Positions 3,003 to 13,687 of a stretch of 32,017 nt of DNA are shown here, in pieces (positions within the stretch are counted from its first letter, which is position 1; each line of letters starts with the position of its first letter). The notes under the pieces are model-generated. The model searched no databases. It was given only the letters and a program-made list of their open reading frames with translations, and was not told the DNA's origin. The translations under genes and the position numbers were made by a program. The stretch comes from a virus: the IMG/VR virus record IMGVR_UViG_3300010049_000008, positions 1-32,017 of that record. One strand, 5' to 3'.

Positions 3003-3653
3003 ATGAAAAAACAAACCTATGAATACCTAATAGCGGCATTATTAATAACCGCAATAATTTTAGGCATAACAGCTTTTATAATACTTTATCCGTGGGGACA
3101 AGAAACCACACAAGCAAACTGCAACATCACACCCACGGTAAATGTCACAGATGCAGAGTTAGCCGTATATCAACAAGTCAGCCAAGAAACCCGCATGAAC
3201 CACAAAACAAACCCCGCCTATTTCATGCAAAGCAGTCACCCAAAAATAATCGCGCTATGCAAACAATTAAACCAGCAGGGCGTAGACCAAAACCTAACCC
3301 CGGAAGAATTCGCACAATACCTCCTCAACTACGTATACACCGCCATCCAATATGCAGAAGACAAAGACACAACCCCCTACAACGACTACTACAATTTTCC
3401 CATAGAAACCTTAGCCCTCGGCTATGGCGACTGCGAAGACACCGCAATGCTCTACATGACCCTTTTAGATTACTTCAATTATGACTATTGTGCTTTCATA
3501 ACCAACACCCACTATTTTGTGGGTATAGCTGGAAACTTTAGCGGCAACCAAATAAACGGATACTACTATGCAGACACAACAACATACAACTATATTATCG
3601 GTAATCCGGTGGTACAAATAGAGGGAGAAAGAGTATGGCAATACTACCCTTAG
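3003..3653 (+). CDS. Signal-anchored transglutaminase-like (papain-fold) cysteine peptidase; candidate lysin
   Basis: N-terminal TM segment (YLIAALLITAIILGITAFIILY), then LALGYGDCEDTAMLYMTLL (the G-x-C-x-D core motif of transglutaminase-like enzymes), a later HYFVGI (His) and YYADTT (Asp). Confidence 0.65.
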   Translation: MKKQTYEYLIAALLITAIILGITAFIILYPWGQETTQANCNITPTVNVTDAELAVYQQVSQETRMNHKTNPAYFMQSSHPKIIALCKQLNQQGVDQNLTPEEFAQYLLNYVYTAIQYAEDKDTTPYNDYYNFPIETLALGYGDCEDTAMLYMTLLDYFNYDYCAFITNTHYFVGIAGNFSGNQINGYYYADTTTYNYIIGNPVVQIEGERVWQYYP

Positions 3654-3820: not shown

Positions 3821-6800
3821 TTAAGAGTTAGCTAACTTAGATATTAGTTTTTCGAGTGCCTCAACTCTTCGAGTCAATATTTGAATCGTGTCTTTCTCCT
3901 TATCCACTCGCCCCCAATATTGTAATAATTCGCCGTCATCACTATACATAGCTAAGTCACGCTCAATTTCAGTCATGCGCACATCATTTTCAAAGACCAA
4001 GTCACCGGGGGTAATGGTTACGGCACGCACAAGGCTAAATCTGTTTCCGTTCTGGCCTATAGTGCCGCTGTTATCATTTTTCGGAACAATAGAACCCGTT
4101 ATGGCAATGTTCCCGTAAGAACTACCATTATTATAATTCAACAACACATCATAATCACCAAGGCCGCCGGAAGATAACGAGGTGCCGTTAGCTTTCAGCC
4201 ACATCGTACCCTGACCGCTCGCATACACAGAAGCATTACCCGTATCAGTAGAATAGCCGGATGCAAACCCATAGTTGCCAAAGGCTGTTATTCCGTTGCC
4301 TGTGAAAGCTCCTAATACGCCCGAGTTAGCGCCTACGCCGCCTGCATTCATAGTCCAGTAGTAGAGGGGATTGTATCCGGGGAAATACCAGAGATAAGAG
4401 GGTGCAGTGTAATTTTGGCCTATCGCCGCTGTGAAATTAATAACGGTATTACTGCTGTCAAAACCTATGGTTCCTTGCTGATTTCCGCTCCCGTCCACAA
4501 AACGCAGTGATTGGCCAAATATTGAGATGCCGTTACTTGCTATATTGGCGAATGGGCTTACTAAGCCGTTTGCGCCTATGCTCATAGTTCCCGCGCCGAA
4601 AGTGCCTTTTCCAGTAGAAATATCAATGTAGAATTGTCTGACTTGGGCGCTGTCAAAGCCTGCGATGCCGCCGCTGTCGATAACTATTTCGTTGCCGCCG
4701 CCCCCGGGAGGCATAATAAACATTCCGTTTCTATTCATTGTAATTGACCCATTTGCAAAATAAGCATTACCATTAGATGCATCTATGTAAAATGAAGGTT
4801 GACCGCTTGAATTATAACCGCTTAAACCATTGCCATCTAATTTCAAAAATGGTGTTACATATCCATTTCCTATGTTGCCGTTTGAGAAGTCGAGGCGGCC
4901 GTTAGCATCGACGCCGTAAATGCTGAGTTGCCCGGCGTGTATTTGGCCTGCCATGAGTGCAAGGTTTAGGGTGCCGCATAATGTCCATACGTTTAAGCCT
5001 GTGATGGGGTCAGGTTCAGCGAAGTAATACGCTTGGGTGTCTGTGGCATAAAACATAGCGCCCTGTGAGACTGTGTCAGGTGCAGGTTTTTCAGCATCTA
5101 ACCCAAACAACAACACACCAAACCCCTGCATACTACCTATCAAATCTTCCAACGGAATATTTTTCAGGGTCTCAAAAGTGATACCACCGCGAACTTGGAT
5201 TCCGTTTACTTGTGTTGACCCGTTGCCTACCATCTGCCCGGTAATGTCTTGCAGTAACCGCATTTGCTGAGGTATGGCCACATCAAGTTCCACAGTTACC
5301 ATTGATGGGGTTTTAGTAATGCGTTTAATTTGAAAGCCGTCTGTATCAGATATGAAATCTAAGTCAGGACGATTAACAACAATAAACTGCCCCGCCCGCA
5401 TCATATACGTCTGATGTAACAAAGCATTAAGAGAGTTCCCGTTTGCGGAGGGATTGCTTAGACGTGTCCAAAGAAATTTGGCCATAGTATTTAGAGTATC
5501 TATGTCTGCGGCGTTAGGATTTTGATAAACTTTTACGGCCCCTGTTTTTACTGCTGGATATTGACCCATGATTAAGGTCTGTTCTTCGTCGGTTCCGCTT
5601 CCCCAAACTTGTACCGTCCCGATAACTTTGGATTCGTCTTTCGTTGTGTGTGACCCTGACTGCCAAAGTGGAGACTCATATAATGTTGAGCTACGGTAGC
5701 CTATGTTTATTTGGCCGTTTGCAGGCCAATAATCTAAACCAAGAACCGCCGCTAACTTTTGCACCGCCGTCAATGCATTTTCTTCGTTGAACGCGATTGA
5801 TACGGGTGTAGTAGGACATTGACCCGCGGATATATTGAGCGCTTGAGCCGCTATATGCTGCAGAATAAGGTTAGCGGGGGTTTGATCGAATGCTCTTGTT
5901 ATTGTGTTAACTGCTTTGTAGAGGTAATTTAGGACAGGGTCGAATAAACCACAAGTAATACGCGTACTATTAATATCACGTGATAACAACACACCCTGAA
6001 ATACTATAACGTCATTATATGTTAATTGAAAACTTTGACCCTGAACCGATTGCACAAACGCTAAAGCCGCCGGAGTATTAACTGTTGCAATTGTAGCTGA
6101 TAAGTTCCCGCCCGCTTCGCCCATTTCATCAAGGATTTCAATCCAATCAAATTGAAACGGAGGAGCTACATAAGCGGAACCATTCCAATAATTAACTCGT
6201 GGTTTTCCAGTGGAAGTTAACGGGGGAGTAATACGTGGACGCCAAACAGCATATAATGTTACGGGCGCAGTGCCCATAGCGAAGCTTGGAGGAGTAACCG
6301 TGTTATCAATATTCACTTTGAAGGTTGATAATGAGGCTAACGGATTGAAGTCCCAGCCGTCTAAACCATATTCCAGTATAGCCAAGTTTCCCGTATTACC
6401 TATAACGCTGACCGTTGCAAATTGGAAATATTCGTTAGGGTCTACTGGTACAGTACCCGTATAAGTTGTGCCAGATGGGGGATTAGCCGCATAAGTTACT
6501 CCAAATGATTCTTGCCAAACCGCATTAAGTGTGATATTAGCCGCTCCAATTATGAATGATGAAGGAGCTACTGTGATGCCGTCGGTTTGAATTCTGAATG
6601 AGGGGCTGTTAAGTTCTCCGGGTAAATCCCACCCAATAACCTTGTAACCCGTAGTATTGAGGTTGTTTGGGTTTGCTTGCACGGTTACGCTATCAGTTGA
6701 CCTGTACAGATTATTATCTACTGGTACTGACCCGGTTAGGGTGGTGCCTGCAGGGGGATTAGGCGCATAAGTTACGGTGTAGAGTTGTTGCCATACTGCG

Positions 6801-8452
6801 TATAGTGTAGTATTCGCGGCGGGGCTGGTGAACGTTGACGGGGTTACGGTTGAGCCGGACACCGCAAAATCAGGGGTGACCGCTGACGCAGAAAAAGCCC
6901 AGCCGAGATAGAGAAAGGGAACCGCTTGCAGATTGCCCGTATTCGCTAATACTGTTACGGGGTCGCCTGCATAGTAAGTGTTGCTATCCGTGGGTACGGT
7001 TCCGCTTGTGCTGGTTGCAGTACTGGGAAAGTTAGCGTTATATGTTACTGTTCGAGGTGTTGTGTCATGATACCAGACTGCATATAATTGCACATTGTTA
7101 GCGGGCATACTCATAGTCGGAGGTGTTGTGCCTGACCCAGATAAAGTAAATGTGGGAGTTGTTGCAGATGGATTTGTATCCCACCCCAACATTTGATAAG
7201 GCGGCGCGGTTAGACTTCCGGTGTTGCCTTGAATTGTGACCGATTCACCCGCTATATACACATTAGCATCAGTTGGCACATTTCCTCCTGTGCTGGTTGC
7301 GTCTGAAGGAAAATTAGCATTATAACCGATAGTAAATAACTGTTGCCATACTGCGTATAAAGTAACGTTAGCATTACCCATTGTAAAACTTGATGGAGTT
7401 ACAACGGTTCCGTTACTGCTAAAGGCAAATGTTGCTGTGGTGGCGCTTGGATTTGTATCCCAACCTAACAAGCGGTAGCCCATGCGGGCAAGATTTCCCG
7501 TATTCGCCGCAACTGGAACCGCCCATCCCGGCTCATATAAATTATTGTCAACGGGAACGGTTCCCGTTAATCCGGGGCCGATGGGTGCATTAGCATTATA
7601 TGTTACGGTATAGGTAGGAGTGACTTGCCATATCATGTATAAGGTGGTTGTAGTGGGGTTGGCTACGGTTGGAGCAATAAAGCTCGGAGGAGTAACCGTA
7701 TCATTAGGGCCAAAAACATAAGTTGGCACGGAAGCATTAGCCGTTGTTGCCCACCCTAACGGGGTATGATGAGGAATAGCTAAGTTCCCACTATTGGGCG
7801 CAATATACACAGTATCTCCTGCGAAATATTGGTTTGAGTCTTGGGGAACGGTGCCTGTGACGTTTCCAGCTTGACCGGCGGGGGCATTTACGTTATAAAC
7901 TACGGTTTGAGGGATTTTATATGCGTATATTCGAAACTTCCAGTTTATTGAAGATACTATCGGTGAGCCACTGTCCGTACCGCCGACCAGAGGCACGCCT
8001 GAACCACCAGCATTAAACGAGGTGAAACTGCGCCCATTATAATTCACATCATTTATCCCGTTGGAATTTCGTTCAATATCGAGAGTAGTGGCCAAGCTTG
8101 TTGAACGGGATAGCACCCAGACATATGTTTTAGCAGGGTCAAGATAAAAATCGGCTGATAAGGTGAAATCAACCCAGCCCATAGTAGTGTTTACTTGTAA
8201 CTGGGTAACGTTTGCGGGGCCAGCTAAATAACTGCCGATTGGCAGTCTTGTGGTGAGATTGGCTTCTTGGAGATAAAGTGAAATGTTGCCGTTGAATGCG
8301 GCGTTTCGTTTCATGGAAAGGGAAACTCTTCGAATATTCTTTCCATTACCCTGAAACGATGTGCCCAAAATATAATTTAATCCAAAATCCCAATTTTGGG
8401 TTGCTGTTCCTGTATCTGTACTGTTATCAATTATAACTTCATAAAAACTCAT
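3821..8452 (-). CDS. Tail tip / Tal-like baseplate hub fused to receptor-binding fibre, 1543 aa
   Basis: Follows TMP and Dit in the canonical order. It has an N-terminal beta-rich domain (aa 1-180), six ~90-aa tandem repeats (aa 182-738), a hub-like middle region, a Gly/Asn/Ser-rich fibre region and a C-terminal coiled coil (TRRVEALEKLISKL). Confidence 0.85.
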   Translation of the reverse strand: MSFYEVIIDNSTDTGTATQNWDFGLNYILGTSFQGNGKNIRRVSLSMKRNAAFNGNISLYLQEANLTTRLPIGSYLAGPANVTQLQVNTTMGWVDFTLSADFYLDPAKTYVWVLSRSTSLATTLDIERNSNGINDVNYNGRSFTSFNAGGSGVPLVGGTDSGSPIVSSINWKFRIYAYKIPQTVVYNVNAPAGQAGNVTGTVPQDSNQYFAGDTVYIAPNSGNLAIPHHTPLGWATTANASVPTYVFGPNDTVTPPSFIAPTVANPTTTTLYMIWQVTPTYTVTYNANAPIGPGLTGTVPVDNNLYEPGWAVPVAANTGNLARMGYRLLGWDTNPSATTATFAFSSNGTVVTPSSFTMGNANVTLYAVWQQLFTIGYNANFPSDATSTGGNVPTDANVYIAGESVTIQGNTGSLTAPPYQMLGWDTNPSATTPTFTLSGSGTTPPTMSMPANNVQLYAVWYHDTTPRTVTYNANFPSTATSTSGTVPTDSNTYYAGDPVTVLANTGNLQAVPFLYLGWAFSASAVTPDFAVSGSTVTPSTFTSPAANTTLYAVWQQLYTVTYAPNPPAGTTLTGSVPVDNNLYRSTDSVTVQANPNNLNTTGYKVIGWDLPGELNSPSFRIQTDGITVAPSSFIIGAANITLNAVWQESFGVTYAANPPSGTTYTGTVPVDPNEYFQFATVSVIGNTGNLAILEYGLDGWDFNPLASLSTFKVNIDNTVTPPSFAMGTAPVTLYAVWRPRITPPLTSTGKPRVNYWNGSAYVAPPFQFDWIEILDEMGEAGGNLSATIATVNTPAALAFVQSVQGQSFQLTYNDVIVFQGVLLSRDINSTRITCGLFDPVLNYLYKAVNTITRAFDQTPANLILQHIAAQALNISAGQCPTTPVSIAFNEENALTAVQKLAAVLGLDYWPANGQINIGYRSSTLYESPLWQSGSHTTKDESKVIGTVQVWGSGTDEEQTLIMGQYPAVKTGAVKVYQNPNAADIDTLNTMAKFLWTRLSNPSANGNSLNALLHQTYMMRAGQFIVVNRPDLDFISDTDGFQIKRITKTPSMVTVELDVAIPQQMRLLQDITGQMVGNGSTQVNGIQVRGGITFETLKNIPLEDLIGSMQGFGVLLFGLDAEKPAPDTVSQGAMFYATDTQAYYFAEPDPITGLNVWTLCGTLNLALMAGQIHAGQLSIYGVDANGRLDFSNGNIGNGYVTPFLKLDGNGLSGYNSSGQPSFYIDASNGNAYFANGSITMNRNGMFIMPPGGGGNEIVIDSGGIAGFDSAQVRQFYIDISTGKGTFGAGTMSIGANGLVSPFANIASNGISIFGQSLRFVDGSGNQQGTIGFDSSNTVINFTAAIGQNYTAPSYLWYFPGYNPLYYWTMNAGGVGANSGVLGAFTGNGITAFGNYGFASGYSTDTGNASVYASGQGTMWLKANGTSLSSGGLGDYDVLLNYNNGSSYGNIAITGSIVPKNDNSGTIGQNGNRFSLVRAVTITPGDLVFENDVRMTEIERDLAMYSDDGELLQYWGRVDKEKDTIQILTRRVEALEKLISKLANS
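6239..7909 (-). repeat. Six tandem ~90-aa coding repeats resembling Listeria-Bacteroides (Flg_new / InlB B-repeat) domains
   Basis: Each unit reads like TVTYNAN..TGTVP.D.N.Y..G..VTV..NTGNL...GY..LGW.T.......F.......TP..F......V.LYAVWQ. Units end at LYMIW, LYAVW (x4) and LNAVW. An identical 19-mer TGTTGCCATACTGCGTATA occurs at 6786..6804 and 7341..7359. Confidence 0.7.
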
Positions 8453-8865
8453 TAGATTAATACCACCGTAACATTAGTACCCGTCGCTTCACGGAATATC
8501 ATGTTATACCTATATATTACTTCTTTCCCCTCTTGTTTGCGGGTATAATCAAAGCTGAAAAGCCATCCTGCAGAAGTGAAAAACTGATTATCCGGGTCAC
8601 TCAACTGCACAACCTTACGATTCCAAGATTCCAGTTGTGTGAGAAAATTAGTTATCAACTGCTGATTCGTTGAGCCCGTAACCCATAAGGCCCCTGACAG
8701 CGTTACAGTTTTCGATTTCGGAAACCGAGAAATCAAAGCCGTCCCCTGTCCCTCAATGGTGAATTCTTCCAATTGGAACGGCAGAGAGACCTTTACGTTT
8801 GTGGGGGCGAACGGTAAGGTGATGGTGTTTGTTCCGTCTCCAATTTGCCAAGTATTAACACTCAT
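8452..8865 (-). CDS. Distal tail protein (Dit-like), 137 aa
   Basis: Position only: it lies between TMP and Tal, with TAATG overlap to the Tal start at 8452. Confidence 0.5.
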   Translation of the reverse strand: MSVNTWQIGDGTNTITLPFAPTNVKVSLPFQLEEFTIEGQGTALISRFPKSKTVTLSGALWVTGSTNQQLITNFLTQLESWNRKVVQLSDPDNQFFTSAGWLFSFDYTRKQEGKEVIYRYNMIFREATGTNVTVVLI

Positions 8866-8866
8866 T

Positions 8867-10477
8867 CTAATAGCGCACTCCTAATCTGTTCTGTCCTTCA
8901 GTTCCAAGCGCATTGCTTATGGCGCGGACTAAGGCTTGTTCTTCTCCCCGAGTCACCGCGTCCTCTATGGCTGAGACTATTTCGTCTAAGCTTTGCGAAC
9001 CGGAAACACTCTCTATACTTATGGTGGGGGTGCTGGTTACGTGTATTGTTACGTCTCCAGTACCGCCTCCTGTTGGGCCAGAGGGAACTATTGAACCGTC
9101 AGTACCTCCTACGGGAACCACTGCCTCGGGGCCAGCTTCCCCAATCACCCCCTGCGGAACCCCTGCTGAATCTACAAGCGTGTAGGGTTCGGTAACTATG
9201 CCGCCTGTAGCCATCTTAGTGCCCCCAGACGACCCGCCCCCGCCAAATAAGCCTCCAAAGAATCCTCCTAAAGCATTTCCAATACCGCTTAAAAAATCCC
9301 CAACGGGCTTAAATATTGTATCATAAACCTTCTTTAGGGCGTCAGCTACAGGTTTAATAAGATTATCCCAGACCCATTTAAACGCATTCCCTAAGTTTTC
9401 CCAAGCCTTTTGTAAAACATTCTTTATGAAGTTGCCAATTGGAACCAGCACATTCTCCCAAAAAGCAGTGAGTAATTTCATAACGTTCTCAATAATGCCT
9501 GTAAAGATTGTTTTTAGAACTTTGCCGAAGGCGTCTATAGCATTTTTCACAGTCTCATTATTTTCATAAAGATAATACAGGGCCAAAGCTAAAGCTACTA
9601 TAGCCGCTATAATTATTACGATTGGATTGGCCGCTAAGAAACTCATAGCGCCTCCTAAAGCTGTTGTGGCCCCTGTTTGCACGGTGGTTGCTGTGGTGGC
9701 TAATCCCTGAGCCGCTGTTTGTGCGCCAGTTGCGGCAGTGTTAGCAACTGTAGTGCCAGTTAGCGCGGCTTTTACAGCAGAAAGGGCAGATTGAGCACCC
9801 GTAAGCAATCCAGTGGCACCCTGCAGAGAAGTAACCATAGTAATCATGCTGGGAAGAACGGTTAAGGCCATTTGGACATAACCCTTCTCAAGGTTTTTCT
9901 GGGCCTGCTCTTCATTCGCTAAGGCGAGGCGGCTTTGCTCACTTTTAATGGAAAGGTTTTCATCTGCTAACGCCTGTTTATTTTTCGCATCTTCTAATTT
10001 GAGTGTGGCCTCTTCCCACTGAGGAGAATCCCTTCCAAACTCCTGCATAGCCTGATATACGGCGTCCTCGGCAGTTTGAACTTTCCAATTCGCATCTTCT
10101 AAGGCTTGGCTGGCTTTCTCTTCCGCAAACTTGGCTTTAGTTACCGCTTGAGATGACTTATCAACAGCTAACTGTTTAGTAGATAAAGAATCATAAGCAT
10201 TATAAAGCGACATAGCAGAAGTAGCTACATTGTTGGCGGCTAAAGCAGATTTGGTAAATGAAACATCGGTAGCGTTAGCGCCTTTACTTATTTCAGCGGA
10301 TGCAGAAGAAGTTGCGGAAGCGGCATCATTCATCCCCGTAGTAACAGCGGCACCAGCCGAAGCACCCGCCTCAGACATAGTATTCATAGAAGAGGTAACT
10401 TGATTACTTGCGTTATTGATAGCTTCGGAAGCTTCATCTATTACAGAAATATGTATAGTTACCTCTTCAACGCTCAC
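8867..10477 (-). CDS. Tape measure protein, 536 aa
   Basis: GTG start with GAGGT 7 nt upstream. Ala/Ser/Gln-rich helical N half, hydrophobic segment PIVIIIAAIVALALALYYLY, Gly-rich linker, and the C-terminal GVIGEAGPEAVVP motif typical of tape measures. Sits downstream of the chaperone frameshift. Confidence 0.85.
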   Translation of the reverse strand: MSVEEVTIHISVIDEASEAINNASNQVTSSMNTMSEAGASAGAAVTTGMNDAASATSSASAEISKGANATDVSFTKSALAANNVATSAMSLYNAYDSLSTKQLAVDKSSQAVTKAKFAEEKASQALEDANWKVQTAEDAVYQAMQEFGRDSPQWEEATLKLEDAKNKQALADENLSIKSEQSRLALANEEQAQKNLEKGYVQMALTVLPSMITMVTSLQGATGLLTGAQSALSAVKAALTGTTVANTAATGAQTAAQGLATTATTVQTGATTALGGAMSFLAANPIVIIIAAIVALALALYYLYENNETVKNAIDAFGKVLKTIFTGIIENVMKLLTAFWENVLVPIGNFIKNVLQKAWENLGNAFKWVWDNLIKPVADALKKVYDTIFKPVGDFLSGIGNALGGFFGGLFGGGGSSGGTKMATGGIVTEPYTLVDSAGVPQGVIGEAGPEAVVPVGGTDGSIVPSGPTGGGTGDVTIHVTSTPTISIESVSGSQSLDEIVSAIEDAVTRGEEQALVRAISNALGTEGQNRLGVRY

Positions 10478-11625: not shown

Positions 11626-12045
11626 CTACTTAAGGTTTGCGTCATACAATCTGCGCCAAACCTGCAGTGAGTTATCCTTAGTTTCAACCCGTGTTTGTTT
11701 AACAAATTCCTGCGCCTGTGTACCCGGGTGCATAACCTTCGTTGCAAAGGCGTCCTCTCCTGCATCATCAACCCAATGCAAAATAGGCTTACCAATAATA
11801 GGATGCGGCGGCGTACCCTTCTCAACATATACTGCATAGGATGCGGTGACTTCTACTTTACCCGTTAACCCGCTGACTTGTTGGGTGATAGAATCCCGCA
11901 TAGCTCCAGACTTCACGGGACAATTCTCCCGCAACCGCTGATACGCAAAATCGGTTAAGTCCTGCGCCAAATCGGGAAGAACCGCACTAAGTTCCTGCGC
12001 ATAAATGTTTAATCCTTTGCCCTGCTTGGACACAGTAACCGACAT
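11626..12045 (-). CDS. HK97 gp10-like head-tail joining / tail completion protein, 139 aa
   Basis: SYAVYVEKGTPPHPI ... VMHPGTQAQEF resembles the gp10-family signature. Start moved to ATG 12045, 5 nt after the upstream stop, rather than the overlapping track start at 12096. Confidence 0.65.
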   Translation of the reverse strand: MSVTVSKQGKGLNIYAQELSAVLPDLAQDLTDFAYQRLRENCPVKSGAMRDSITQQVSGLTGKVEVTASYAVYVEKGTPPHPIIGKPILHWVDDAGEDAFATKVMHPGTQAQEFVKQTRVETKDNSLQVWRRLYDANLK

Positions 12046-12050
12046 AGGCA

Positions 12051-12488
12051 CTACGCAATCACCGTGTGAAAAACCGTTTCCACTTTCAGCCGCCACTTCT
12101 CCGGAGCTTCAATCTTTTCGGTTGAGGGCTTCACAAAGAAAACTCTGGGGGAAGTGCTTAGGGTACGGCCTATAGTGTAGAGTTGCGCTTCCAAGTTTTC
12201 ACGGTCAGCACTAATAGCATCGATGTCGCCGCCGTAAGCATCTACACTAAATATGCAGTCGATGGTTACTTGTTCCTTTTCATATATCACAGATTTCACA
12301 GGGTGTGTTATAGTGCCTGTTTTAGGTGCATTGTAGGTGCTTATCACAATTTTAGCGCTTAGCTGACTCCAGTTATCCATAGCTTGATTGCGCGTTGAGT
12401 AATATTGGATTGGGGGTAAATCTGTTAGGTTTGACTCTATTAGCGATATAAGGTATTGTGCGTTATTTAGGGTAGGGGTATTGCTCAC
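12051..12488 (-). CDS. Neck / head-closure-type protein, 145 aa (by position)
   Basis: GTG start with AGGAGG 8 nt upstream. Lies between the adaptor and the gp10-like gene. No motif recognised. Confidence 0.45.
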   Translation of the reverse strand: MSNTPTLNNAQYLISLIESNLTDLPPIQYYSTRNQAMDNWSQLSAKIVISTYNAPKTGTITHPVKSVIYEKEQVTIDCIFSVDAYGGDIDAISADRENLEAQLYTIGRTLSTSPRVFFVKPSTEKIEAPEKWRLKVETVFHTVIA

Positions 12489-13687
12489 ACTTTTTGTCCT
12501 CCTATTCGGCCGCTGAAATCATGACCCGACGTCACCCGTAATAAACCAAGTTGTCTTAAGATTTGATTTGCCTGTGTGGTATAGTTAGCCCACTGTACGC
12601 CGTATTTCCCATCTTTGGGATACTGCACACGTAAATCTCCCAAACTGTAACTCTGCAAGACACCTCCGCTCCAAGCCGCTAACACTTTAAGCGCCGCTAA
12701 CATACTGCTAAGATGAGCAACATTAGTGGGAACAGTCGCATAGCCAAAAGTGTAGTCTACCTGAAATACTTTCATGCCGTTTACAAAGTTGCGGTAGAAT
12801 TGGATTTCACAGCGGGCCGGATAAACTTCATAATTCGCATCTGTGGGGCCGCCGTCTGCTGTTCTTCCCTCGATTGTGGGCCACCATTGGTTAGACTGCC
12901 AAAACGTCACATTATTAACTTGTACTAATGGAAAATTGTTTAGCAGAATTTGTCCCGGCGGCATCTCTAACAAGCGGTCATAAGTTTCAACTGTATCATG
13001 TAATCTGAAGTCATGTCCGCACCAGCCGTCAATAAACGCGTCCGCTTCCTCAATCATTGTTTGCGCTTGGGCTAAGGTGGGTTTGGTGGTGTCGGTGAAA
13101 GTGAAGCCTAACAAAGCTTGTAAATCTGCTATACTGCTGTAACTGTTTCCTATAGGGGTGGGAGGGTCGGTGTGCAGGGTGAGCAATTGAAAAGGCAGGA
13201 CTTCAGAAATCACTATAGCAGAATTCCAAGCCGCAGAATATTGCAAAAACATTTGACCGTTGCGCGATGCATCAGGAGAGGTACCTGTGGTGATAAACAT
13301 GTTTCCTGAACCGGGCGCAGTAGCATTCACAATAGCCACAAAATAGATAGAGCCGGAAACGGTTTGTACGGGGTTAGCAAAATCAAACTCTATCCATCCT
13401 GCCACGTTATTTATGGATTGCATCGCTATATTTACACTTGAACCCACAACAGTTTTGTTTTGGTCGAGTATTAGCATCTGCATTTGGCCTGTCTGATTAT
13501 TATTTTGGCGGCTGATAATCACCCGACCTTTATTAATTATGTCTCCGGTACCCATAAATTGTTGCGCTACGCCCGCATTATTTAGTGCGGTGCTGAGGTA
13601 TGCGGCCCCTAAGTTTTGAGTTGATGTGGGAGGATAGAGTATGATTTCATCTATGACGTCATATACTATTTCTATGGGTTCGGTCAT
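12485..13687 (-). CDS. Head-tail adaptor (gp6/gp15-like connector) with an extra N-terminal beta-rich domain, 400 aa
   Basis: The C-terminal half begins SSIADLQALLGFTFTDTTKPTLAQAQTMIEEADAFIDGWCGHDF, the usual opening of head-tail connector proteins. The N-terminal ~175 aa resembles the Tal N-terminal domain. Confidence 0.6.
   Translation of the reverse strand: MTEPIEIVYDVIDEIILYPPTSTQNLGAAYLSTALNNAGVAQQFMGTGDIINKGRVIISRQNNNQTGQMQMLILDQNKTVVGSSVNIAMQSINNVAGWIEFDFANPVQTVSGSIYFVAIVNATAPGSGNMFITTGTSPDASRNGQMFLQYSAAWNSAIVISEVLPFQLLTLHTDPPTPIGNSYSSIADLQALLGFTFTDTTKPTLAQAQTMIEEADAFIDGWCGHDFRLHDTVETYDRLLEMPPGQILLNNFPLVQVNNVTFWQSNQWWPTIEGRTADGGPTDANYEVYPARCEIQFYRNFVNGMKVFQVDYTFGYATVPTNVAHLSSMLAALKVLAAWSGGVLQSYSLGDLRVQYPKDGKYGVQWANYTTQANQILRQLGLLRVTSGHDFSGRIGGQKV

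Follow-up and report, generated by a model that had tools for sequence, protein, structure and literature searches.

The window, by which is meant the whole stretch of 32,017 nucleotides of DNA from an uncultured tailed virus analyzed here (IMG/VR record IMGVR_UViG_3300010049_000008), encodes the same beta-sandwich, or 'sticky', module on a putative head-tail adaptor and on a large protein placed at the tail tip by its gene position, an arrangement that is new although its parts were already known. Pairwise and profile comparisons identify residues 1-175 of the adaptor and residues 1-180 of the tail protein as homologous, representing two diverged copies of one module. Overall, the shared region is best explained as an accessory, solvent-exposed adhesion module carried at both sites, a reading to which a somewhat better than even chance is given, and the neck of this virus may help it hold on to cells.

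The genes encoding the adaptor and the large tail protein are both located on the minus strand, and the coordinates given for them in a preliminary description of this DNA were right; the plus-strand translations are full of stop codons, while minus-strand translation of both genes yields the peptides that had been quoted (Table 1). Read along the minus strand, a capsid-like gene (348 aa) is followed by genes for proteins of 127 and 72 aa, the adaptor gene, a gene for a 145-aa protein, the Neck1 gene, a weak tube-like gene, and the tape measure gene. The same order was found in three relatives (L001, L003 and L013). Neck1 was recognized by both Pfam (HK97-gp10_like, 27.8 bits; cut-off, 21.4) and PHROG 5 (E 2.1e-12). 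The terminase of the window is at most 28% identical to that of any phage record, and no provirus of the virus turned up when genomes were scanned, one for each species. A transglutaminase-like gene is present in the window and the terminase weakly matches Methanobacterium virus Drs3; these two observations are the only hints of a methanogen host.

Table 1. Features of the window relevant to the shared module, with their coordinates and the basis of each assignment.
Feature	Coordinates	Strand	Composition or basis
Putative head-tail adaptor gene, 400 aa	12485-13687	minus	N-terminal module, proline-rich linker and adaptor core
Adaptor N-terminal DUF4082-like beta-sandwich module (predicted), aa 9-171	13175..13663	minus	AlphaFold2, family HMM, hhalign, Foldseek
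Proline-rich linker joining the module to the core, aa 172-182, HTDPPTPIGNS	13142..13174	minus	Read from sequence
Putative head-tail adaptor core, aa 183-400, and stop codon	12485..13141	minus	PHROG 442, gene order
Large distal tail protein gene, 1543 aa	3821-8452	minus	'Tal' by position only
Tail-protein N-terminal DUF4082-like module (predicted), aa 3-179	7916..8446	minus	Adaptor-family HMM, hhalign, AlphaFold2, Foldseek
Six tandem InlB B-repeat-like repeats of 91-94 aa, tail protein aa 185-737	6242..7900	minus	Sequence, Pfam
Conserved C-terminal part of tail protein, aa 815-1543, and stop codon	3821..6010	minus	Similarity to L001 tail protein
145-aa neck protein, head-closure (stopper) position	12051..12488	minus	By position; 4-base overlap with adaptor stop
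Tail completion/Neck1 protein (HK97 gp10-like)	11626..12096	minus	Pfam, PHROG
Tape measure gene	8867-10477	minus	Many PHROG tape-measure matches
Capsid-like gene (major capsid protein), 348 aa	14271-15317	minus	Precedes two small genes and the adaptor gene

The preliminary description had proposed that the two N-terminal regions share an ordered set of short landmarks, and all six were found in aligned columns by both BLASTP and hhalign (adaptor/tail: QQFMGTG/TSFQGNG, VIISRQ/LSMKRN, TGQMQMLIL/NGNISLYLQ, VGS/IGS, GWIEF/GWVDF, and IYFVAIV/TYVWVLS). The BLASTP alignment involves only 26% identity over 103 columns with an E-value of 0.004 for a single comparison, and the tail copy has no Pfam match even at E 10, both of which would be consistent with a chance or compositional resemblance of two Asn/Thr/Ser/Gly-rich beta regions without a common origin. 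However, composition-preserving shuffles almost never attained the observed score; the Smith-Waterman score was 71 as opposed to 34-35 +/- 6 for 2000 shuffles of either partner, and it was reached by none of the 2000 in one case and by one of 2000 in the other. Moreover, in a comparison of 76 segments drawn from all window proteins, each of the two regions had the other as its best match, the next best scores being 46-49. The partner is still recovered by profiles built without it, with E-values of about 1e-6 to 1e-7 and no decoy near. Thus, a profile of the adaptor domain and its database relatives, from which the tail protein was left out, matched residues 30-123 of the tail protein (27.4 bits, E 2.6e-7 in 9,933 sequences) and no other window protein, whereas the best of 9,900 shuffled decoys scored 9.6 bits. 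HHalign comparison of the two regions, which had been suggested as a check, returned a probability of 93.8% (E 1.8e-7, 82 columns), and that of disjoint profiles, adaptor-only against tail-protein-only, returned 86.2% (E 4.9e-6, 83 columns). Each region on its own also matches the same repeats of proteins P0010, P0003, P0009, and P0006, and the two have the same predicted fold and PDB neighbors. Chance resemblance is thereby largely refuted and is regarded as highly improbable.

The earlier characterization of the module as 'duplicated' holds in the sense of shared ancestry but not in that of a recent event, given that the copies are only about 26% identical and the tail copy resembles domains of other proteins roughly as closely as it resembles the adaptor copy. 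A recent duplication within this genome was rejected because the tail copy scores higher against the P0010 repeats than against the adaptor copy. Hence, judging from these comparisons, the similarity between adaptor and tail protein is old.

With respect to family, profile searches identify the module as a distant relative of DUF4082. This had been essentially anticipated, and some relatives of the adaptor domain do bear Pfam-validated DUF4082 repeats at the matched positions; a likeness to LamG, also entertained earlier, was not borne out as LamG was never among the matches. When 1.84 billion representatives were searched exhaustively with HMMER, nine matches were obtained, in some of which the aligned positions coincide with validated DUF4082 repeats, and phmmer searches with the adaptor domain matched P0005, P0007, and P0008 at their DUF4082 repeats. 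The envelope of the family HMM on the adaptor spans aa 30-180. Comparison by hhalign of the adaptor-only profile with validated DUF4082 repeats gave a probability of 92.8% (E 3.8e-7). The corresponding match of the tail copy is weak (49.6%, E 1.7e-4, 32 columns), and its membership is therefore considered to run through the adaptor-type and P0010-type domains. Among the 21 members of the alignment, 11 match DUF4082 and three match the Cwp84 Lectin_like family. The Pfam model of DUF4082 (PF13313; cut-off, 28.4 bits) recognized neither the adaptor region (13.7 bits, E 0.064, profile positions 38-92) nor its orthologues P0002 (14.8 bits) and P0011 (13.8 bits) above its cut-off, and gave no match to the tail region at E<=10. 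Likewise, word-indexed protein searches returned only the adaptor itself when queried with the adaptor, and nothing, the tail protein of the window included, when queried with the tail region. The family profile also matches two proteins of solved structure, the tripod protein of Staphylococcus phage 812 (aa 794-942, E 6e-10) and gp20 of mycobacteriophage Douge (aa 548-635, E 4e-4). The conserved residues of the family (AQxF, W..F.F, P, and Y) resemble core residues and define no binding site.

Structure prediction indicates that the module is a 12-stranded beta-sandwich of approximately 165 aa. The AlphaFold2 model of the adaptor module, based on an alignment of 21 sequences, has a pLDDT of 86 and a pTM of 0.82, with 12 strands between E9 and E171; that of the tail module, whose alignment left out the L001-derived rows, has a pLDDT of 75.5 and a pTM of 0.73, with 12 strands in the same order. 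The strands of the two models correspond one to one, the comparison having been made through strand order and lists of Foldseek neighbors and not by direct superposition. The agreement between the models is not fully independent because their alignments share 14 rows. Both models nevertheless returned the same best PDB matches, and no difference in fold of the kind that would have spoken against the preliminary description was seen. The top match of each is the phage 812 tripod protein (9eui_Q), with E-values of 2.7e-6 (adaptor) and 3.3e-6 (tail) and TM-scores of 0.66 and 0.63, respectively, and the second is Douge gp20 (8zdp_v; E 9e-5 and 1.2e-5). Further shared matches, in order of rank, are PHR domains, cyanophage A4 capsid entry 9jwb_Z, and PBCV-1 8h2i, followed at lower ranks by the Cwp84 lectin-like domain and several carbohydrate-binding modules; likeness to CBM6, CBM16, CBM35, EclA, and the Cwp84 lectin-like domain is at the level of fold (Foldseek E 1e-3 to 1e-2). 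Matches in BFVD are mostly to minor tail, collagen-repeat fiber, dockerin, and pectate-lyase proteins.

The assignment of the 400-aa protein as a probable head-tail adaptor is drawn from one PHROG family together with gene order. PHROG 442, annotated 'head-tail adaptor', aligns positions 76-260 of its 270 with adaptor residues 172-380 (E 1.1e-14), and it matches the adaptor core alone (E 7.8e-15) and the orthologue P0011 (E 1.6e-12); with P0002 and P0012 alone, significance was not reached. A proline-rich segment was found at the same place in the alignment of all four full-length orthologues, and the confidence of the adaptor model is low at the linker end. Sequence searches of Pfam, NCBIfam, and the PDB returned nothing for the core, a profile of four orthologues found no solved adaptor by sequence, and the phage GenBank collection contains no match to the adaptor; when IMG/VR was scanned with one protein at a time, neither the adaptor nor the capsid protein yielded a match. 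It might be argued that the protein is some other accessory of the neck or head, such as a collar, whisker, or decoration protein, with a C-terminal domain that is merely adaptor-like. In that event, a count of 12 copies would be wrong while the shared module would stay. That a single PHROG family supports the assignment while Pfam, NCBIfam, and the PDB are silent on the core would fit this alternative, as would the occurrence in some relatives of two tandem paralogues, unusual for a ring-forming connector, and the size of the core; gp6-type adaptors are roughly half as large as its approximately 220 aa. Yet the PHROG 442 matches to both the window protein and P0011 cover most of the profile, the gene occupies the canonical place between the capsid genes and Neck1 with no other adaptor candidate in the interval, and this position is kept in all relatives. 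The alternative is accordingly considered improbable.

The 1543-aa gene follows the tape measure gene and a 137-aa gene, which is the position expected of Tal, directly behind the tape measure and distal tail (Dit) genes, and its product is identified as 'Tal' by position only. No Tal family or gp27-like hub domain was detected in it, its N-terminus being the DUF4082-like module and not a hub domain. The B-repeats (Flg_new_2, 25.0 bits with a cut-off of 23.6; Flg_new, 20.5 bits) provided the only sequence matches in Pfam, PHROG, and the PDB. The conserved C-terminal part of the protein is 30% identical to the tail protein of L001 over 418 aa.

The preliminary description had also raised the question of whether related adaptors carry the N-terminal extension. 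It is kept in all close relatives found (L001, L002/L003, L004, L006, L007, L016, and L017) and absent in more distant ones (L005 and L008-L015; 41-46% core identity), the adaptors of which have 216-219 aa with a stop codon just upstream. These short-adaptor relatives possess homologous portal and capsid proteins (38-42% identity). Two tandem adaptor genes are present in some relatives. In L001, the orthologue of the 145-aa protein at the stopper position has 509 aa and bears one or two copies of the module at its N-terminus, and the tail protein bears up to four. Among orthologues, identity is 29-34% in the module versus 35-42% over the whole protein, suggesting that the module diverges faster than the adaptor core. 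The retention of the fusion in close but not distant relatives, coupled with the presence of the module on other proteins, therefore points to a shuffled accessory surface module.

By analogy with its relatives, binding of glycans or of the host by the module is plausible. It would most likely recognize a host-surface glycan with low affinity. Were the adaptor to form the usual dodecamer, 12 tethered modules would make up a collar just below the capsid, adding avidity or providing a first reversible contact, and the tail-tip copy, which is followed by the six InlB B-repeat-like domains, would have an equivalent role at the point where the tail becomes committed to infection. The tip-CTD construct of Douge, of which the matched tip domain is a part, recognized alpha-glucan and LAM fragments in a glycan array and also bound M. 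smegmatis cells (PMC13033339). These data concern a two-domain construct, within which the matched tip domain is a candidate binder. For phage 812, the beta-sandwich domains of the tripod have been proposed by the authors to be receptor-binding sites (PMC13433997), and in roseophage R4C the N-terminal domain of the adaptor, tethered by a flexible loop, sits outside the capsid shell (PMC10276861).

The same R4C structure provides the basis for a different view, namely that the adaptor module folds back onto the shell around the portal vertex, thereby fastening the neck to the head, and has no part in host binding, the tail copy then being a separate use of a generic beta-sandwich. The R4C adaptor consists of an N-terminal beta domain (aa 1-106), a long flexible loop and a tube domain, and contacts between its 12 copies and the major capsid proteins involve a symmetry mismatch; such attachment is the only documented role of an adaptor N-terminal beta domain (PMC10276861), and the window adaptor is laid out alike, with its beta module, proline-rich linker, and core. 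Against this, the module also occurs on the tail-tip protein and, in L001, on the neck protein that follows the adaptor, both farther from the capsid, and a short adaptor suffices in relatives with homologous portal and capsid proteins. In addition, the relatives of the module are tail fiber, tripod and central-fiber domains and cell-surface proteins, not capsid clamps, and a 12-stranded sandwich of this size differs from an Ig-like domain of approximately 100 aa. Capsid attachment is thus thought unlikely, though not negligibly so. The modules might instead form a passive collar or a dock for another virion protein, for example a fiber, through protein-protein rather than glycan contacts. The shared fold matches include PHR domains, beta-sandwiches that mediate protein interactions, and no binding-site residues were identified in the module. 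Nonetheless, no candidate fiber gene adjoins the adaptor gene in the window, the copy number and placement of the module vary among close relatives in a manner that fits adhesion better than a fixed docking interface, and the module diverges faster than the core. Docking is accordingly held to be quite unlikely.

The reading of the module as an accessory adhesin may be carried further. The neck could be a second, evolvable adsorption organ made of the module that it shares with the tail tip, equipped with 12 lectin-like modules tethered to the adaptor and, in some members of the lineage, with copies on the stopper-position protein; tandem paralogues could then assemble a mixed ring of two specificities, and exchange of modules between neck and tail could retune host range. 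This extension is speculative and must be regarded as doubtful.

There is a growing view that phage virions are covered by accessory modules that bind glycans, located on the capsid, the tube, Dit, Tal and the whiskers of the neck. The present case extends this list with a putative module of this kind that is fused directly to the head-tail adaptor. With the fusion kept in a small uncultured clade and absent in its nearest outgroup, and the module reused on another neck protein and at the tail tip, the clade offers a clear natural test case for the shuffling of domains between neck and tail genes. DUF4082, a domain without known function, gains a structural context in virions, and the two solved relatives, the 812 tripod protein and Douge gp20, supply a testable hypothesis of adhesion. 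If binding proves true, neck proteins would count as host-range determinants in the annotation of metagenomic viruses.

Several known systems resemble parts of this arrangement. The DUF4082 repeats of bacterial and archaeal surface proteins, which are related to the Cwp84 lectin-like family (PF18560) and have no assigned function, share with the module the succession AQxF, strand, W-x-x-F-x-F, P, then G-x-x-Y-hydrophobic, whereas the virus copies carry two additional strands at the N-terminus, with a V-I-D-x-I motif. The neck passage structure (collar-whisker) of the lactococcal 936 and P335 phages places multiple carbohydrate-binding modules at the head-tail junction, where they serve as ancillary, non-essential adhesins with demonstrated weak binding to the host (PMC6669499). 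However, it is a separate protein of 500-900 aa that is built from a BppU-like N-terminal ring domain, a trimeric coiled-coil stalk, and a carbohydrate-binding module at the C-terminus, and whose copy number is believed to be 18 (PMC6669499). That architecture was not found in the window; its module is fused to the adaptor core by an 11-aa linker, and the adaptor matches only PHROG 442 and no Pfam family.

An adaptor with an extra outward domain had been described as uncommon, but this needs to be tempered as the RcGTA and R4C adaptors bear an N-terminal Ig-like 'attachment domain' (PMC10276861). They are alike in layout, likewise having an N-terminal beta domain, a flexible linker, and a ring-forming part, with 12 copies outside the shell; they are set apart, by description, in that the attachment domain is Ig-like, has approximately 106 aa, contacts the capsid, and is not shared with the tail tip. 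In Douge, the profile match to the central fiber gp20 (PDB 8ZDP) falls inside the tip domain (aa 485-688), which, like the tail copy of the window, is carried at the tail tip of a siphovirus; it lies near the C-terminal tip of a separate fiber protein, whereas the window copy is at the extreme N-terminus, and the available text describes no such domain on the Douge adaptor (PMC13033339). By both profile and fold, the best solved relative is the tripod protein gp119 of phage 812 (PDB 9EUF/9EUI), a baseplate protein whose beta-sandwich domains have been proposed to bind receptors (PMC13433997); there, the matched domain is internal to a trimeric protein of 1152 aa in a contractile-tailed phage and not part of a neck protein.

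A single beta-rich domain had been proposed in the preliminary description to occupy the N-termini of both the head-tail adaptor (400 aa) and the tail protein named Tal (1543 aa), and multiple sequence tests agree that the likeness is real. The two intervals read sensibly on the minus strand only, on which the structural genes of the window (32,017 bp, the entire contig of an uncultured tailed virus; G+C approximately 42%) are coded. BLASTP aligned 103 columns of the N-terminal regions (26% identical, E 0.004), and the six landmarks listed earlier were all found in aligned columns with both BLASTP and hhalign. The Smith-Waterman score of the pair was 71 vs 34-35 +/- 6 in composition-preserving shuffles, a value attained by 0/2000 and 1/2000 shuffles (either partner shuffled), and the regions were reciprocal best matches among 76 segments spanning every window protein (next best, 46-49). 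Nine relatives of the adaptor region emerged when 1.84 billion representative proteins were searched exhaustively with HMMER. The iterated profile built on these nine, tail protein excluded, was searched against 9,933 sequences; it matched residues 30-123 of the tail protein (27.4 bits, E 2.6e-7), the other window proteins being unmatched, and scores for 9,900 shuffled decoys reached 9.6 bits at most. With hhalign, the two regions aligned at 93.8% probability (E 1.8e-7), and disjoint profiles of four adaptor modules and three tail-protein modules at 86.2% (E 4.9e-6, 83 columns). As sole query, the tail region recovered the same repeats of the database proteins P0010, P0003, P0009 and P0006 as did the adaptor region. 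The adaptor and tail modules are very probably homologous. Chance resemblance is effectively excluded. A word-indexed protein database queried with tail-protein residues 1-193 returned no match, the window's own protein included, and the adaptor was found there; the tail protein gene may be called differently in, or be missing from, that collection.

Both modules were predicted to be all-beta, with 12 strands pairing one to one by order (adaptor: 21 alignment rows, pLDDT 86, pTM 0.82; tail: 15 rows, pLDDT 75.5, pTM 0.73). Comparison by strand order and, as had been suggested, by Foldseek revealed the same top PDB matches in the neighbour lists, viz. the phage 812 tripod (9eui_Q; adaptor E 2.7e-6, TM 0.66; tail E 3.3e-6, TM 0.63) and Douge gp20 (8zdp_v; adaptor E 9e-5, TM 0.59; tail E 1.2e-5, TM 0.53), an agreement that is not fully independent because 14 rows are common to both alignments. 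Further down, both neighbour lists contained PHR domains, capsid entry 9jwb_Z of cyanophage A4 and a capsid protein of PBCV-1, with several carbohydrate-binding modules and the lectin-like domain of Cwp84 at lower rank. The family profile also matched the 812 tripod protein at aa 794-942 (E 6e-10) and Douge gp20 at aa 548-635 (E 4e-4), within the tip domain (aa 485-688).

The DUF4082-type affiliation first guessed holds as relatedness. The Pfam-validated DUF4082 repeats of P0005, P0007 and P0008 lie exactly at positions aligned to the adaptor module, and DUF4082 was matched by 11 of the 21 alignment members (the Cwp84 Lectin_like family by 3/21). The adaptor-only profile aligned to the validated repeats with hhalign at 92.8% (E 3.8e-7) and the tail-type profile weakly (49.6%, 32 columns). 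However, neither copy attains the Pfam cut-off of 28.4 bits (adaptor, 13.7 bits; tail, no match), and hence both are distant relatives of DUF4082, on which there is practically no literature, and not members by Pfam's rule. Virus-encoded copies have in common an N-terminal V-I-D-x-I strand (YDVIDEI, YEVIIDN, HVIDSIT). P0010 (896 aa), probably another viral fibre protein, has three module copies with the QSFTGNG motif, as in the window's tail protein, and, C-terminally, a Thr-rich stretch and GDVWK repeats. P0003 (485 aa), with two copies between an N-terminal signal-like segment and a C-terminal hydrophobic anchor, looks for these reasons like a cell-surface protein.

Coordinates of the module-bearing proteins and associated genes (L001-L017, contigs or loci of relatives)
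Feature	Locus	Coordinates	Strand	Remarks
Adaptor N-region	window	13163-13687	-	residues 1-175 of 400-aa protein (12485-13687)
Stopper-position protein	window	12051-12488	-	145 aa
Tape measure gene	window	8867-10477	-	536 aa, short
Gene between tape measure and tail protein	window	8452-8865	-	137 aa, small for distal tail protein
Tail-protein N-region	window	7913-8452	-	residues 1-180 of 1543-aa protein (3821-8452)
InlB B-repeat-like repeats	window	6242-7900	-	aa 185-737 of tail protein; six tandem, 91-94 aa, each ending LYAVW
Transglutaminase-like protein	window	3003-3653	+	216 aa; Pfam Transglut_core 25.5 bits (cut-off 23); cysteine-peptidase core
Stopper-position orthologue	L001	5681-7210		509 aa
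Long adaptors (module + core)	L001, L002/L003, L004, L006, L007, L016, L017
Tandem long adaptors (P0012, then P0011; N-terminal module and core present in both)	L002	8787-11200
	L003	10001-12414
	L004	7856-9432
	L007	3977-5469
Short adaptors (core only, 216-219 aa)	L005 (= L010)	195-854
	L013	9974-10633
	L014	8931-9590
	L008, L009, L011, L012, L015			L015 copy truncated by contig end

Relatives were recovered with a profile of the adaptor and its orthologue P0002, followed by their contigs and a metagenome scan. P0002, P0011 and P0012 (399-405 aa) were obtained, and related adaptors were found to exist in two forms, with and without the extension. The short adaptors share 41-46% identity with the core of the window adaptor and, given a stop codon just upstream, lack any fused module; their loci (the longest approximately 10 kb either side of the gene) contain no detectable copy. 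Portal and capsid identities between these viruses and the window are 42% and 38%, and the window's tail genes are not shared. L013 and L014, with enough sequence to compare, have portal, scaffold-like and capsid genes in common with the window and unrelated genes downstream, indicating a head/tail mosaic boundary at or just after the adaptor. In all long adaptors the linker between module and core is proline-rich, and divergence is faster in the module than in the core (29-34% identity vs 35-42% for the whole protein). With tandem paralogues, the adaptor ring might be mixed, or one copy might have a separate role.

The window's capsid-like genes are followed by those for the adaptor, which matches PHROG 442 'head-tail adaptor' at residues 172-380 (E 1.1e-14), the 145-aa protein, an HK97 gp10-like Neck1, a weak tube-like protein and the tape measure. 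After the 137-aa gene comes that of the 1543-aa protein, named Tal by position only; Pfam, PHROG and PDB sequence searches gave no match backing the name. The L001 counterpart of the 137-aa product has 199 aa (41% identical), and residues 200-393 of the tape measure also match PHROG 'endolysin' family 971. The module recurs on other neck and tail proteins. In the L001 stopper-position orthologue, the window protein is matched by the last approximately 130 aa (E 2e-11), the last approximately 150 are 61% identical to the L002 protein, and the extra N-terminal residues (approximately 350) contain one to two DUF4082-like copies. The tail protein of the window has, in order, the module, the six repeats (Pfam Flg_new_2, a divergent InlB B-repeat; 25.0 bits, cut-off 23.6) and a conserved core, module and repeats forming an adhesin-like array of approximately 740 aa; the L001 tail protein has up to four copies with B-repeats interleaved. 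Just beyond the tail protein gene, on the opposite strand, lies the transglutaminase-like gene, with weak DUF553 and LapG matches as well; it may encode a cell-wall peptidase or lysis protein and offer a hint about the host envelope.

Neck and tail-tip proteins carry N-terminally one kind of shuffled, accessory beta-sandwich module on a short linker. We infer, on indirect grounds, that it is surface-exposed and adhesive because the solved structures related to it are domains within receptor-binding assemblies, minor tail and fibre proteins make up most of its BFVD neighbours, and six InlB B-repeat-like domains follow it in the window's tail protein. In addition, a Douge tip-CTD construct bound alpha-glucan and LAM fragments, and also M. 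smegmatis cells (PMC13033339), and the tripod beta-sandwiches of phage 812 were proposed by the authors to be receptor-binding sites (PMC13433997). Adhesion is a plausible function, to which we give about even weight. A dodecameric adaptor would tether 12 modules as a collar, which could add avidity or permit reversible first contact; the earlier picture of 12 glycan binders for reversible adsorption is hypothetical.

The strongest alternative is that the module contacts the capsid, a role documented in RcGTA and R4C, whose adaptors have an N-terminal Ig-like domain on a flexible loop (PMC10276861). Three observations make this role less likely here: module copies also occur on the stopper-position protein and on the tail tip, the module is dispensable in the outgroup, and the family is known from other contexts. 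A passive collar or docking element is possible, as is misassignment of the 400-aa protein as an adaptor, the core of which matches PHROG 442 by itself (E 7.8e-15).

That phage host-interaction proteins shuffle domains is well known, and ancillary carbohydrate-binding modules on virions, neck included, are already established. New here are the direct fusion of a DUF4082-like module to an adaptor, the retention of this fusion in a clade, sometimes in duplicate, and the sharing of the module by adaptor, stopper-position and tail-tip proteins. The lactococcal neck passage structure, with approximately 18 modules, binds the host weakly and is non-essential (PMC6669499); like the window's adaptor it places accessory modules at the neck, whereas in the window the module is fused directly to the adaptor.
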